Part shown: positions 47-5,238 of the stretch, piece by piece
Position numbering within the stretch: the stretch's first letter is position 1
Layout of the letters: every line of letters begins with the position of its first letter
Assembly: GCA_048939245.1 (NCBI GenBank)
Contig: JBHLPR010000061.1
Coordinates: 1-13,303, forward strand
DNA length: 13,303 nt
Source: Promethearchaeota archaeon
Lineage (GTDB): Archaea > Asgardarchaeota > Hermodarchaeia > Hermodarchaeales > Hermodarchaeaceae
Reading direction: 5' to 3'
Translations under genes and position numbers: made by a program
Notes under the pieces: generated by a model
The model's input: only the letters and a program-made list of their open reading frames with translations
Database searches by the model: none
What the model was told of the DNA's origin: nothing

Positions 47-595
47 TTAGGTATTTTCGAGTTCTTCATTGGTCTTTTGTGGTCCAAGATTATCACATAA
101 CAAAGAGGTAACAAAGAAAATCACAACTAACGCAATAATCGATGTCAGTCCATAAGGGGAAATTAGGAGAAGAGTGATAAAACCAAGATATCGAATACTT
201 CCGATTACCTTCGCAAGGATGTAAGTTTCGCTTAGGATCCATGGATCTGGAACTGGATTGTTATCGCCTTTAAATCTGAAATTAAGAACACCTGAGACAT
301 TGGTAATTTCGATAATCCGATGAACGATGGGCACATCAGAACCGACTGGTGTTGCATCATAGATTACGATATCTCCGACCTGTAGCGTCGTGGGGTCGAC
401 GGCTCGGACGATCACTAAATCTCCACGATAAAGGGTTGGTTCCATCGATTCCGATTCAACAGCGAGCAAAGGCGTTGGAGTTTGCAGGTAGAATTGGAGT
501 CCAATTCCCGTGCCCCAGATAATCACTAACACAAGACCGATTACAGTTACATCTTCAATGAGTTCACGTTTCCAACTTTTCTCGCTGCTCAACAC
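47..595 (-). CDS. sec11: Signal peptidase I, archaeal/eukaryotic Sec11 (S26B) type
   Basis: N-terminal TM helix (VTVIGLVLVIIWGTGIGL), catalytic Ser box VESESMEPTLYRGDLVIV, His box PIVHRI, KGDNN..PD box and a C-terminal hydrophobic segment. GTG start at 595 (TTG at 592 also possible) preceded by GAGGT. Confidence 0.95.
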   Translation of the reverse strand: MLSSEKSWKRELIEDVTVIGLVLVIIWGTGIGLQFYLQTPTPLLAVESESMEPTLYRGDLVIVRAVDPTTLQVGDIVIYDATPVGSDVPIVHRIIEITNVSGVLNFRFKGDNNPVPDPWILSETYILAKVIGSIRYLGFITLLLISPYGLTSIIALVVIFFVTSLLCDNLGPQKTNEELENT

Positions 596-722
596 CAGAA
601 CCTCGGAACACTCATAACCTGAATTGAAATGTCCTTCACAGTTAAAAGATATGCCTATACGAAAGCATCTTACCTAATGATTTTTTAGAAGACCTCCCAT
701 AATCATGATTTGGTGCGAGTCT

Positions 723-1475
723 ATGCATTTCATTACTAAGATATTGAATGAAACAGTAGATCAGTCCGTACACCAGGCTTTCCTACGATATGGGCGAGGT
801 GAATATCCTGGCCCTGCAGCTGAGGTAACCGTAACTAAAGCAGGGACGGTCAAAGTCCGTTCAACCTACATGTATCAGGACTTAGCTGCATCTGTGATGA
901 TTGAAACAATGCCAGTCGAAACAGTGGCTATCTCCGGTTTGATCTTGGGGTATGAACCACTCGATGAAGTATTAGCGAATATAGGGTTTGACGCTGCGCA
1001 ATCAAAAAAGAAATCTCGAACATTACTTTATCAAGCCAAATTGTCTGGCGAGTATCCAATACACCAAGTTTCGAAACTTTATAGTGGTATAGACGCAATT
1101 GCTTACCTCTTCTGCTCTCTGAAAACCAATATTGGCTGGGAACACAAAGCGAAGACCAAAATACCTTCTGCTCAGAAAGAGCCTCCTGTAAGTGAAAGGC
1201 TCAAGTTCAGCAATACAAAAGTTCCAAAAAACACGAAGTTCCTACAGGCTCTTCTCTCTCAACTCTTACCTGATTTCATCAATGATGTTCCCTCAGATTT
1301 TTCGAAACTCCAAATTATAAATACCTACGAGATTCAAGATCTTATCTTTCCTCCTGATATGAAACAGCTAGCCTCCAGAGAAGTAAGACTGAAGACCAAA
1401 CGAAGCGGCATCTTGAGACGCACCCTTATCATTGATGACACAGAATTTACCAATAAACACCCCATGACAGTCTAA
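723..1475 (+). CDS. Hypothetical soluble protein (~250 aa)
   Basis: Long ORF (705..1475 in the track) filling the gap between neighbours. ATG at 723 preferred because GGTG (712-715) sits at SD spacing. No TM segment or catalytic motif recognised. Confidence 0.8.
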   Translation: MHFITKILNETVDQSVHQAFLRYGRGEYPGPAAEVTVTKAGTVKVRSTYMYQDLAASVMIETMPVETVAISGLILGYEPLDEVLANIGFDAAQSKKKSRTLLYQAKLSGEYPIHQVSKLYSGIDAIAYLFCSLKTNIGWEHKAKTKIPSAQKEPPVSERLKFSNTKVPKNTKFLQALLSQLLPDFINDVPSDFSKLQIINTYEIQDLIFPPDMKQLASREVRLKTKRSGILRRTLIIDDTEFTNKHPMTV

Positions 1476-1568
1476 CTGTATCATTAATCGAATTTGTCAC
1501 CCAAACCAAAAATAATTAAAAAGGTGAACCAGTTCACTCACCTCTGATATTTACAGGTGTTTCATAAC

Positions 1569-1772
1569 ATGCAATGGTCACTATTCCTTCCTTGGTATAC
1601 GGTATATGGTGCAATACTCATTGTCTTTGGAATTCTACTCGCCGTTTGGCTAGTCTATATTGTTGAAAAGGCTCGCCAACCACCCTGGCTAAAAATGATC
1701 ATAGCAATCATTTTGATCGCGTTGGCCATTGGGTTCGGTCTGCATCTTATCATGGTGCAACTAGCACTATAA
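1569..1772 (+). CDS. Small two-TM membrane protein, putative OST5/TMEM258-like oligosaccharyltransferase subunit
   Basis: AGGTG (1555-1559) is better read as the SD for ATG 1569 than as a GTG start, giving 67 aa. Two hydrophobic helices joined by a short basic loop (EKARQPPWLK). Motifs LIVFGILLAVWLVYIV and IGFGLHL resemble TMEM258 (LLAIGMFFTAWFFVYEV, MGFGVLF; recalled from memory). The CDS is well supported; the family call is moderate. Confidence 0.65.
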   Translation: MQWSLFLPWYTVYGAILIVFGILLAVWLVYIVEKARQPPWLKMIIAIILIALAIGFGLHLIMVQLAL

Positions 1773-1804: not shown

Positions 1805-3022
1805 TTAGAAAAGACGCGCCTTTCCATCAAGAATTAGCTTCTGAACAGAACATACATCTTCAAGCTCTGCATCAACAATCGCAGAGACGCTTTTTTCTAC
1901 AGCACTCCATGATGCCTTTTCATCCGTGATAACTTCGGTTGATGCAATTAACGGTTGGTCAATGGGGTATCCAATTCTTGTAAGAATTTTGATAAAAACC
2001 TCTGAGACGTTGGGTTCCTCTGCGATAACATGATCTGCAATGCGTTGGGCTAGCACATTGTATATTTTTCCAACATGATTCTGTGGATTCTTGCCTGCCG
2101 TCGCTTCGAGACTCATTGGTCGACAAGGAGTAATCAATCCATTTGCACGATTACCTCGGCCAACTCCTGCATCGTCTCCCATCTCCGCAGAAGTTCCAGT
2201 TAGTGTCAGGTAATAAACGCCTCGTTTAGGATCATCTGCAGAGTTGACGACGACACTGACCTCACGATCAGTAATTTTCTTCGCTTGGTCAAGTACAGCA
2301 TTCTCAACATCGTCGAGTATTCCTCGATAATGGTCAGCATCAGGAATTAGATGTGCAATCATTGCAGCGGCTACTGTTAATTTGATATCATCATTAGTTC
2401 GCAATCCCATAATCTTGACATCTTCTCCAACTTCCGGATGCTTCTTTTTAAACGCGTCCGAGTTGAGAAGTTGTTCTGTTTGAAAAACAAGGTTTTCGGT
2501 TTCTGAAAAGGGTGCAAAAGCTACACCAAAACTAGTATCATTAGCACGGGGAATGTCGTCAACGGTGTGGTCAAATACATGAGTAAGGTCAACTGAGCCT
2601 GATTTGATTTTGTAATCCATCAAGACCTGCTGTGTTGGGTCCAGGAAACGTAGGGTCTTTTTCAAGGTGGTTTTTATTGAGTCAAGAGTTAAAGTACCAA
2701 GCGGAATTCGAACCAATTTCTGATCTTTGAAGACTTCTGTAGTAGCACGACCAACAACACAAATGTAAATTGGTTCTAGTAATTCTCCTCCACCGAATCC
2801 TACTTGGGCACGACCTCCAGCAATTGATCCTTTGTCGACGTTGTGATGGAGGATTCCACCAAAATTGTCAATGTAGTAATTACAGAGGTTAACGCCAACA
2901 TTCTCAACAACTGCGTCAAGAATCGTGTCTGGGTGACCTTTTCCTTTTCTTTCGACAATTTCAAGCGATTGTTGTTCCATGGGAGGGGCTACGGCTTTCG
3001 TAACAGCGATGTTTCGGGGCAT
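1805..3022 (-). CDS. mat: S-adenosylmethionine synthetase, archaeal type (methionine adenosyltransferase)
   Basis: [89 protein letters not shown]. 405 aa is typical; SD AAGGTG upstream. Confidence 0.97.
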
Positions 3023-3222: not shown

Positions 3223-4440
3223 ATGAGCCACTTTGTTGATGAAGATGAAATACGGCGTTTAAGTCGACGCATCGCTGAGGAATTCGAGTCGACCTATGGG
3301 ACCCTTGATGAAAAGGTTGCCCGTGTACCTGACGATGCGGCAACGGCCATTGCTGATGAATGCTGTGTTCATCTCGAGGTTGCTCGAGTGGCTTATCGAG
3401 TTATGCTTGATGGTGTGATTACGGATCCTAGGCCTTCATGCCAGGTTCTTATGCAGGAATTTGATCGTCGAGCTAAACAAGGAAGCCCAGTTCCGGAAAT
3501 TGATACCTACCAACGAGAAGTTGCAGTAACCGAGGGAAAATGGGTTGAATATCTCTACGGGCAATTAGGGAAAATACTGCTAGCTGATCTTCGGAATTTA
3601 GTGAATCTCGAGCGCACAATTTCTGATGAAATTGAACCAGCCAACGAAAAAGTCATTGCTGTAATTTCCCAAAGAAAGAAAATCAATGAATGTTATTTTC
3701 AACCATTGATCGAACGGTGGTTAGGCGACCATGAAGGTGCAAATATCACTATTGCCGTTCGAGCTATTGCAGGGGGATTAATCGGATCTACTGACTCTGA
3801 TATTGATGATGCAATTAACGGTGCTCGAGCCGCGCTCCTTATCAAGTTAAGACGGTATGAACAATTTTTACGCCAAGAAGATGATGAGGAAGAAGAATCT
3901 CGTCTGATGGAAAAAGTTCTTGGCGAAATCCAGATTCTTATAAAAGAAGTTCAAGGATCCCTTGAATGGGCTTCTTCAAATACCGCAGGAGAAATCCTCA
4001 TCGAAGTTACGCCATCTCCACCTGAATCAATCGATGAGAAACCGAAATTTGGGTTTGTTTCTGCTCCATTTCCATCAAGACCACAAATGGGTCCTCCACT
4101 ACGAACACCTCTAGATTTTTTGGAAAGAGATGTTTGGCTGGCATCCATGAAGGCTCCTGATGAACGAGCTCCGTTCTTACGCGAAAAAATCACCACAGTG
4201 GCTGATAATCTAATTGAACAAGGGACACCACTTGACAAAATTGGAACGACGATTATCTTCGATTTAGATAGCCGCTTTTCTTGGACGCGCTCAAAAAAAT
4301 CAGTGGTCCGAAAAGAATTACGAGAAATCCAGGATTTAGCAGGTGAAGATTATCGTGCACAAATTGAAAACTATGTCCTAGAGAACCTTTTAGCAAAAAT
4401 CCCGGAACTCCGATCCAAACCAAATAGAGAAGAGAGCTAA
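3223..4440 (+). CDS. Hypothetical protein, acidic and probably mostly alpha-helical (405 aa)
   Basis: Long ORF with strong SD (GAGGAGTGA) before the ATG. Helical heptad-like patterning, acidic run EDDEEEE and a Pro-rich linker (TPSPPES...PFPSRPQMGPP). No family recognised. Confidence 0.85.
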   Translation: MSHFVDEDEIRRLSRRIAEEFESTYGTLDEKVARVPDDAATAIADECCVHLEVARVAYRVMLDGVITDPRPSCQVLMQEFDRRAKQGSPVPEIDTYQREVAVTEGKWVEYLYGQLGKILLADLRNLVNLERTISDEIEPANEKVIAVISQRKKINECYFQPLIERWLGDHEGANITIAVRAIAGGLIGSTDSDIDDAINGARAALLIKLRRYEQFLRQEDDEEEESRLMEKVLGEIQILIKEVQGSLEWASSNTAGEILIEVTPSPPESIDEKPKFGFVSAPFPSRPQMGPPLRTPLDFLERDVWLASMKAPDERAPFLREKITTVADNLIEQGTPLDKIGTTIIFDLDSRFSWTRSKKSVVRKELREIQDLAGEDYRAQIENYVLENLLAKIPELRSKPNREES

Positions 4441-4461
4441 ATGTGTCTGAGATGAACCGCG

Positions 4462-5238
4462 ATGACAGAACAAAATCCTCCCCTTCTATGGGTCTTAGAC
4501 TATGTTATTCCTGATTTCACTATCTTTGGAGAAAAAATAACTCTCAATGGAGAACTGCTCATTGCTTCTCGACAGCTTTTTAGTTTTCTTCAGGAGGAGA
4601 TCGTTCGATCCGCATTCATTGGTCCTGGTGTAGTTAAAGGCCAAGTGCTGATTAAGGGAAAACCGGTAGATGTAGAATATCTCGTCGGGGCGGTCCTCTT
4701 TGACCCGACAAAAATGCGACCACGTGAACCAATCCCAGTTCTTGATATCCTTAACCCCGAAATATTAGATCCCCTTGAACAGGCATCAGTCGAACAAGTC
4801 CAAGAAATTATTCGTAAACTAATTATCAAAAAAGGGTCTGTTGATGATTCCGGTCAAATCCTGAAGATAACTACAGAAGGCGGACTACCAACCACACTCC
4901 TCTCGGAGCAGCGCATTGTACCTCGAAACATTTCACTAATCTCTGGATTGAAGAAAGCCCGCTTTTTACTCGGTGGACAGAAGAATCGGCTGTATACACC
5001 TTTCAAGGATGCCCTGCAACGCAATCAATTCAGTGATCCTAGCCGAATTTGGACATTCCGAATTGATACTATGGAATTCGAAGAATTCAATCCCAAAAGT
5101 TTTGATGAATGGATTATTATAGAAATGCAATCCGACACCGCCGATTCCTCACGTTCAAGTCAGGTAGTCGAATTAGAATTTAACTCGATTCTAACTTATT
5201 TGCTAGGAAATCGGAAATATTTCATTTTTGATGATTAA
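4462..5238 (+). CDS. Hypothetical protein (258 aa)
   Basis: Long ORF starting 21 nt after the previous stop, so probably co-transcribed. No TM segment or motif recognised. Confidence 0.8.
   Translation: MTEQNPPLLWVLDYVIPDFTIFGEKITLNGELLIASRQLFSFLQEEIVRSAFIGPGVVKGQVLIKGKPVDVEYLVGAVLFDPTKMRPREPIPVLDILNPEILDPLEQASVEQVQEIIRKLIIKKGSVDDSGQILKITTEGGLPTTLLSEQRIVPRNISLISGLKKARFLLGGQKNRLYTPFKDALQRNQFSDPSRIWTFRIDTMEFEEFNPKSFDEWIIIEMQSDTADSSRSSQVVELEFNSILTYLLGNRKYFIFDD

Follow-up and report, generated by a model that had tools for sequence, protein, structure and literature searches.

Eukaryotes use a multi-subunit N-glycosylation machinery at the ER translocon, and to our knowledge no archaeal multi-subunit oligosaccharyltransferase (OST) has experimental support. 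In yeast and human, Ost5/TMEM258 and Ost1/ribophorin I constitute the OST subcomplex I (PMC7226087). The single transmembrane (TM) helix of Ost1 is contacted by both helices of Ost5 in the yeast OST (structures 6EZN and 6C26), and ordered lipids bridge the Ost1/Ost5 helices to TM1-2 of Stt3 (PMC7226087). Although OST5 is non-essential in yeast, the OST does not reach its optimal activity without it (PMC7226087). Eme et al. 2023 described homologues of Ost4 and of Ost5 (TMEM258) 'in most Asgard archaeal classes', with the Hermodarchaeia included in the data set (PMC10307638). The preliminary description of the present locus was correct in stating that OST accessory homologues had already been reported in Asgard archaea; since Eme et al. 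2023, the Asgard Ost5 homologues are already known at the family level (PMC10307638).

The window is the whole stretch of DNA that was analysed, with a length of 13,303 nucleotides, from a Hermodarchaeial genome (G000; assembly of 2.52 Mb in 122 contigs, 88% complete). A small gene is located at 1569..1772 on the plus strand, which encodes 67 amino acids plus a stop codon. The frame has no internal stop on translation; the opposite strand is full of stops. The start codon is the ATG at 1569, which is conserved as MQW or MQF among the orthologues, and the GTG at 1557 lies within a stretch that is not conserved in the ortholog alignment. That 1569..1772 is a real gene is virtually certain, based on the translation, the orthologues, the purifying selection, the AlphaFold hairpin and the family-level homology to PF05251/TMEM258. 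The 67-aa open reading frame with a two-TM hairpin, as first proposed, is borne out by translation, hydropathy and AlphaFold. Judged from sequence comparison, the gene is very probably the Hermodarchaeial member of the Asgard Ost5/TMEM258 family, and it is called the Ost5-like gene below.

The Ost5-like gene is preceded by a gap of 93 nt after the gene of a 256-aa protein (up256), and it is convergent with the S-adenosylmethionine synthetase gene (metK). Putative expression signals of its own were read by eye in the sequence at 1508..1559 on the plus strand, namely a TATA-like stretch rich in A and T (1508-1522) and, 9 nt before the ATG, the Shine-Dalgarno-like motif GGTG (1556-1559). A promoter scan with the bacterial sigma-70 model, which is irrelevant for archaea, gave no match at this gene. 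An inverted repeat with a 10-bp stem (1520-1545) is also found between up256 and the Ost5-like gene. The repeat overlaps the putative 5' leader, and in the terminator scan it was terminator-like for the minus strand only.

The best explanation for these observations combines membership of the Ost5/TMEM258 family with an OST role beside the Ost1-like protein and AglB, and as a whole it is held with fair confidence. The role as an OST accessory subunit, taken by itself and argued from the known complexes, is held a little less firmly, as somewhat better than an even case. The candidate partners are encoded in the same genome. Only one STT3/AglB gene was found, on contig C115 (183.7 bits). A direct Pfam scan of the genome for ribophorin I (PF04597) was negative; however, the homologue was found through its orthologues. 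Five genomes of the same genus have weak to significant PF04597 matches in frames of 585-587 aa, and two of these same-genus ribophorin I proteins reached 38.6 and 34.2 bits, above the cut-off of 25. The present genome encodes a protein of 576 aa (G000:C26:67351-69063; L044:1492-3219, plus strand), which is 64% identical to the same-genus proteins that pass PF04597 (E 6e-243). It reached only 17.9 bits itself against the same cut-off of 25, and PF04597 is among the precomputed assignments of 13 of its 35 database relatives. Judged from these matches, the protein is a divergent ribophorin I/Ost1 homologue.

The Ost1-like protein starts with a signal peptide, followed by an ectodomain that carries five N-x-S/T sequons, a single TM helix (~398-418) and a cytosolic coiled coil (~425-576). 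This coiled coil of ~150 residues is far more conserved than the ectodomain and contains dozens of invariant residues. For a Lokiarchaeal Ost1, an ability of the cytoplasmic domain to bind eukaryotic ribosomes has been reported (PMC11417166). Other OST subunits were also searched in the genome. The best match of the OST3_OST6 family (PF04756) was 22.8 bits, below the cut-off of 27, in a multi-TM open reading frame of 144 aa without a thioredoxin domain (G000:C22:10806-11138; L045:1456-1890, plus strand). It matches the membrane part of PF04756, and from its sequence it may be a DC2/OSTC-like protein or a TM-only homologue of Ost3/6. The search for Ost4 (PF10215) in this 88% complete genome gave chance-level matches inside large open reading frames only, and no match of DAD1/Ost2 (PF02109) was found in it.

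We infer the topology, the Ost1 binding and the N-glycosylation role of the Ost5-like protein from the known OST systems. The protein would form a helical hairpin in the cytoplasmic membrane, with its basic loop toward the cytoplasm. Both of its helices would pack on the single TM helix (~398-418) of the Ost1-like protein, and the two proteins would sit beside the catalytic AglB/STT3. The hairpin would stabilise or position the Ost1-like protein, with no part in catalysis. The invariant Glu33 and the conserved Lys42 would be located at the cytoplasmic membrane boundary, and they are candidate contacts to lipid head groups or to partners. A complex prediction for residues 236-576 of the Ost1-like protein with the Ost5-like protein gave a score of 0.01 and a mark of 0.32, which makes no call for or against binding. 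The eukaryote-like multi-subunit OST proposed in the preliminary description is supported by these data, with the assembly of the complex suggested by homology. Three refuting conditions had been named in that description, i.e. no profile match to Ost5, motifs that vary among the orthologues, and a genome without ribophorin I. None of the three refutes the reading, although the negative direct PF04597 scan, taken by itself, would have fulfilled the last one.

The Ost5-like gene is unlinked to the AglB and Ost1-like genes, which lie on other contigs. Its neighbours in the window are of different types. A signal peptidase gene of the S26/Sec11 type is located at 47..595 on the minus strand (Peptidase_S26, E 6.3e-7, 29.9 bits against a cut-off of 22.9). 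It lies 974 bp upstream of the Ost5-like gene, which confirms the distance of about 1 kb given at first. The up256 gene (705..1475, plus strand) follows, which encodes a soluble orphan protein of 256 aa; no other neighbour of the Ost5-like gene is as constant across the Asgard families. The metK gene (1805..3022, minus strand) encodes the archaeal S-adenosylmethionine synthetase (PF01941, E 2.3e-159). A pair of genes for soluble orphan proteins of 405 and 258 aa (unk405 and unk258) is found at 3223..5238 on the plus strand, as defined by BLASTP and synteny. Other genes around include a Roadblock protein, a JAB protease and a DUF5814 helicase, which are archaeal and Asgard-like.

The neighbourhoods were compared among the loci L026-L034 and L049-L096. 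The up256 gene adjoins the Ost5-like gene on the same strand in the GTDB families f1, f6 and f26, and in a divergent, head-to-head arrangement in f9 and f23. The unk405 and unk258 genes are located directly downstream of the Ost5-like gene on the same strand in f6, f12 and f20, and nearby in f3, f14, f15, f18 and f24. In the own family of this genome, metK separates the Ost5-like gene from the pair. The orphan pair matched the neighbours of distant Ost5-like genes in BLASTP with E values of 3e-37, 5e-36 and 5e-50. A signal peptidase gene is found within ~1-2 kb or less of the Ost5-like gene in four families (f1, f8, f14 and f18), a recurrence that was counted in favour of the OST role.

The three orphan proteins up256, unk405 and unk258 have no sequence match in Pfam, NCBIfam or the PDB, and a search of the ESM Atlas by features gave no identification of them. 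The up256 protein is conserved across the Asgard archaea with 22-70% identity, and its predicted model has a pLDDT of 91.2 and a pTM of 0.87. Fold searches with this model (Foldseek against the PDB, VIA wide and the Atlas fold search) revealed no clear structural relative. Only a generic ferredoxin-like subdomain was matched at residues 71-140, with Z<=7.1 in VIA wide, and the matches of the Atlas fold search stayed at TM<=0.32.

The constant neighbours of the Ost5-like gene are soluble orphan proteins, and neither AglB nor the Ost1-like gene adjoins it, which was counted against the OST role. The first alternative to be weighed is that the protein is a true Ost5/TMEM258 homologue that acts outside the OST in Asgard archaea and serves some other membrane module. 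For example, it could be an anchor or partner for up256, unk405, unk258 or the signal peptidase, with the recruitment to the OST occurring later on the eukaryotic stem. Such a function is unlikely in our estimation, and the same holds for these particular partners and the late recruitment. The alternative draws on the neighbourhood with up256, unk405 and unk258, which recurs in many GTDB families, in either same-strand or head-to-head arrangement, and on the missing linkage to the AglB or Ost1-like genes. However, the gene order may be simply inherited, since the housekeeping gene metK is found in the same neighbourhood. Moreover, a strict operon is made less likely by the intergenic gaps of ~90-180 bp and by the divergent arrangements, and the neighbours are without membrane or secretion features.

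The distribution of the two families was also taken in favour of a function outside the OST. The Ost5-like gene is present in more Asgard genomes (169 of 201) than ribophorin I (PF04597, detected in 113 of 201). The difference is uneven among the families; for example, the Ost5-like gene was detected in 42 of the 43 genomes of f6 and PF04597 in only 6 of 43, whereas in f25 the numbers were 0 of 2 and 2 of 2, respectively. This uneven co-variation of Ost1 and Ost5 may reflect the sensitivity of the HMM. The lower count of ribophorin I is at least partly an artefact of this kind, as the present genome scores 0 in the direct scan and yet has the gene. The co-occurrence of the Ost5-like gene with ribophorin I is uninformative, because PF04597 misses the divergent Asgard forms.

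The conserved neighbourhood is read mainly as inherited gene order, because a housekeeping gene is present and the gaps and orientations vary. A more specific proposal is that the Ost5-like hairpin represents the membrane part of an undescribed Asgard-wide module with up256, unk405 and unk258, often with the signal peptidase nearby; we regard this as improbable, and more so than a function outside the OST in general. If such a module were true, the neighbours might act in the cytoplasm as new factors of the archaeal translocon/OST machinery, or they might be partners that are anchored by the hairpin. An accessory subunit of the OST beside the Ost1-like protein and AglB is still the preferred reading of the Ost5-like protein.

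The assignment to the Ost5/TMEM258 family is based on the relatives of the protein. The 67-aa protein alone gave no match to PF05251 even at E<=10, so that the Pfam cut-off was not reached, and its Pfam and NCBIfam scans gave no Ost5 and weak assorted DUFs only. The PF05251 scan of the genome revealed chance-level matches inside large open reading frames elsewhere, and none at the 1569-1772 locus. We read the lack of a direct match as a probable divergence beyond the sensitivity of a single sequence, because the link through the relatives is strong. Two distant Asgard relatives pass the PF05251 gathering cut-off (28.1 and 28.4 bits against 27.4) and cover the profile positions 9-70 of 73. They share 33% and 31% sequence identity with the Ost5-like protein (E 1.4e-6 and 5.9e-6). 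Ost5 was also the top Pfam match for several other relatives, including a same-genus orthologue at 18.1 bits.

The family profile was searched against a library of 1.84 billion representative proteins, which gave 41 clusters, all of 59-175 aa. A match to PF05251 at E<=0.01 was found for 28 of the 41 family representatives (best E 1.3e-8), and any other Pfam family was matched by one of them at most. Only the archaeal family was recovered from this library at E<=1e-3, without the eukaryotic TMEM258. The same profile was compared with 177,635 distinct PDB sequences, and human TMEM258 was the sole match at E<=10, with E 2e-4 (6S7O chain C and five other entries). The match extends over both helices, with residues 9-66 of the query against 17-76 of the 79 residues of the chain. 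A set of 28 metazoan TMEM258 proteins was collected starting from the TMEM258 fragment of this PDB match and was aligned. The hhalign comparison of this set with the 41-member archaeal alignment gave a probability of 96% (E 4.6e-9, 65 columns); a narrower archaeal alignment of 22 members gave only 65.5%. As controls for the hydrophobic composition, reversal of either profile gave 0.8-0.9%, and 20 column shuffles of the template gave at most 0.5%. The controls stay at or below 0.9% against 96%, and therefore the hhalign signal depends on the residue order. The archaeal G21, W27, K42 and G55-F-G57 were aligned with the invariant G29, W35, K52 and G65-F-G67 of TMEM258.

Structural comparison gave the same best relatives. 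In Foldseek, the TMEM258 chains 8b6l_L and 6s7o_C were the best matches of the Ost5-like model, with probabilities of 0.99 and 0.97 and TM scores of 0.70-0.74, at E values of 0.7-1.2 that are not significant. In VIA, the same chains reached Z scores of 9.2 and 8.8, with rmsd 2.0-2.1 Å over all 67 residues, and were followed by the ArnC/GtrB hairpins (Z 7.4-7.6). These structural scores are not decisive, because the helical hairpin is a common arrangement.

Could the Ost5-like protein be an unrelated small membrane protein of two helices, whose likeness to TMEM258 is convergent or compositional? The missing direct Pfam match with its assorted DUFs, the identity to TMEM258 of only ~12% and the PF05251 matches at E<=10 that are also found in 9 of the 14 control genomes lacking Ost5 would agree with that. 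However, the reversed and shuffled profiles do not exceed 0.9% against 96%, 28 of the 41 members match one and the same family with no other family recurring, TMEM258 is the single match in the whole PDB, and the aligned invariants G, W, K and GFG coincide. An unrelated origin is thus very unlikely, and it was largely ruled out by the hhalign controls. The protein is homologous to Ost5/TMEM258, which we state with high confidence for a link that is transitive through its relatives. The resemblance to OST5/TMEM258 first noticed is borne out as a distant homology by the family profiles, the PDB match and the controlled hhalign comparison. The expected match to the Ost5 profile held for the family, with 28 of the representatives, two proteins over the cut-off, the sole PDB match and the hhalign probability, and failed for the protein alone.

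The Ost5-like gene is well conserved. Orthologues with 53-81% identity are present in 13 of the 14 same-genus genomes and in all four sister-genus genomes, i.e. in 17 of 18 genomes of the same family. These orthologues are full length, with the same length and the same MQW/MQF start. Across the phylum, the family profile matched 169 of the 201 sampled Asgard genomes, nearly always in a single copy, and 82 of 86 among the high-quality genomes. The relatives carry only the label 'hypothetical protein' where they are named. Among 18 close orthologues, the median pS was 0.72, with the synonymous sites saturated, against a pN of 0.23; a dN/dS of ~0.17 for the pairs with usable dS indicates purifying selection. 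The codon positions 1, 2 and 3 were variable at 45, 29 and 65 of the 67 codons, respectively. A chance open reading frame between up256 and metK, for which only the short length of 67 codons and the 'hypothetical protein' labels would speak, has next to no probability and was ruled out by the conservation pattern, i.e. the frame and length kept across the phylum, the excess of third-position over second-position variation (65 against 29 of 67 codons) and the low dN/dS.

The hydropathy of the Ost5-like protein revealed two hydrophobic segments (4-36 and 37-67), and the AlphaFold2 model has helices at 2-34 and 40-64 (mean pLDDT 92.7, pTM 0.73). The protein can be divided into TM1 (~2-34), a basic loop (35-39, in the EKARQPPWLK region) that is predicted to be on the cytoplasmic side, and TM2 (~40-64). 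TMEM258 has both termini on the lumenal or outer side and its loop in the cytoplasm. For the Ost5-like protein, the most likely topology predicted by the positive-inside rule is the same, since K34, R36 and K42 are found in the loop region, which would face the cytoplasm, and the termini are uncharged and would both be outside.

The motifs first noticed, G-x5-W-x-VYxV where helix 1 ends and GFG within helix 2, are present in the translation as G21-x5-W27, W27-L-V-Y-I-V32 and G55-F-G57. Their conservation was confirmed only in part. Among 22 Asgard orthologues, E33 is invariant and W27, L28, V32, K42 and G57 are at least 90% conserved, whereas G21, Y30, G55 and F56 are variable, and the VY pair is offset by one residue in comparison with TMEM258. 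For example, G21 is replaced by A within the genus, and GFG by GVG or SFG in the sister genus. Because of this variation, W27 and the last G (G57) are the robust motif positions, together with Glu33 and Lys42. The latter two conserved positions were absent from the motif list of the preliminary description.

Extended forms of the hairpin were also observed. In one Asgard genus (family f21, genus g32), it is located at the C-terminus of open frames of 154-185 aa (genomes G107, G135, G129, G074, G174, G192, G111, G120 and G138; e.g. loci L052, L061 and L062). The loci of this genus are without the usual neighbours of the Ost5-like gene. Library proteins of 150-175 aa (P0055, P0060 and P0063) have the same layout with an extra hydrophobic segment at the N-terminal. 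The two of them included in the alignment (P0055 and P0063) contain an acidic/Thr-rich linker.

A gene family labelled 'hypothetical protein' can be assigned in this way to Ost5/TMEM258, with its presumed partners Ost1-like and AglB in the same Hermodarchaeial genome. The assignment is of use for annotation and for the choice of constructs in biochemical reconstitution. The cultured Asgard archaeon Ca. Prometheoarchaeum syntrophicum also has orthologous genes. Ost5/TMEM258 is among the 'eukaryotic signature' proteins, which suggest that the Asgard archaea already had parts of a multi-subunit N-glycosylation machinery. What is added here is the controlled homology test, the recognition of a divergent Ost1-like partner encoded by this genome, and the observation on the neighbourhood. 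Of these, only the neighbourhood with the three orphan proteins and the signal peptidase may be new.

The distribution of the Ost5-like family in 169 of 201 Asgard genomes agrees with that given for Asgard Ost5 by Eme et al. 2023 (PMC10307638). Because the Pfam link and the distribution are shared, the present family is probably the one described there as Ost5; the passages on Ost5 in that paper contain no mention of the conserved neighbourhood or of the N-terminally extended forms.

Comparison with human TMEM258 (6S7O chain C and 8B6L chain L; PF05251) showed both similarities and differences. The Ost5-like protein lacks the conserved lumenal N-terminal segment M-x-R-Y-x-S-P-x-N-P of TMEM258, shares only ~12% identity with it, and has a loop that is two residues shorter. 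The archaeal invariant Glu33 at the end of helix 1 is one residue past the Glu of the TMEM258 Y-E-V, and the V-Y pair is also shifted by one residue. Moreover, the archaeal protein would be located in the cytoplasmic membrane, whereas TMEM258 is located in the ER. However, both proteins are hairpins of two helices (67 and 79 aa) with a basic loop between the helices. Helix 1 carries the G-x5-W in both, the loop is directly followed by a Lys, and helix 2 has the pattern S/A-L-x-x-GFG-x-x-F/L-L. The Ost5-like model superposes on TMEM258 with rmsd 2.0 Å over 67 residues and a Z score of 9.2, compared with 7.6 for other hairpins.

The link to yeast Ost5 runs only through the Pfam family, because no yeast Ost5 chain was among the PDB matches of the family profile at E<=10. 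Yeast Ost5 is likewise a small non-catalytic subunit with two TM helices, and the present genome has a gene for the partner expected of such a subunit, a homologue of Ost1/ribophorin I that has one TM helix.
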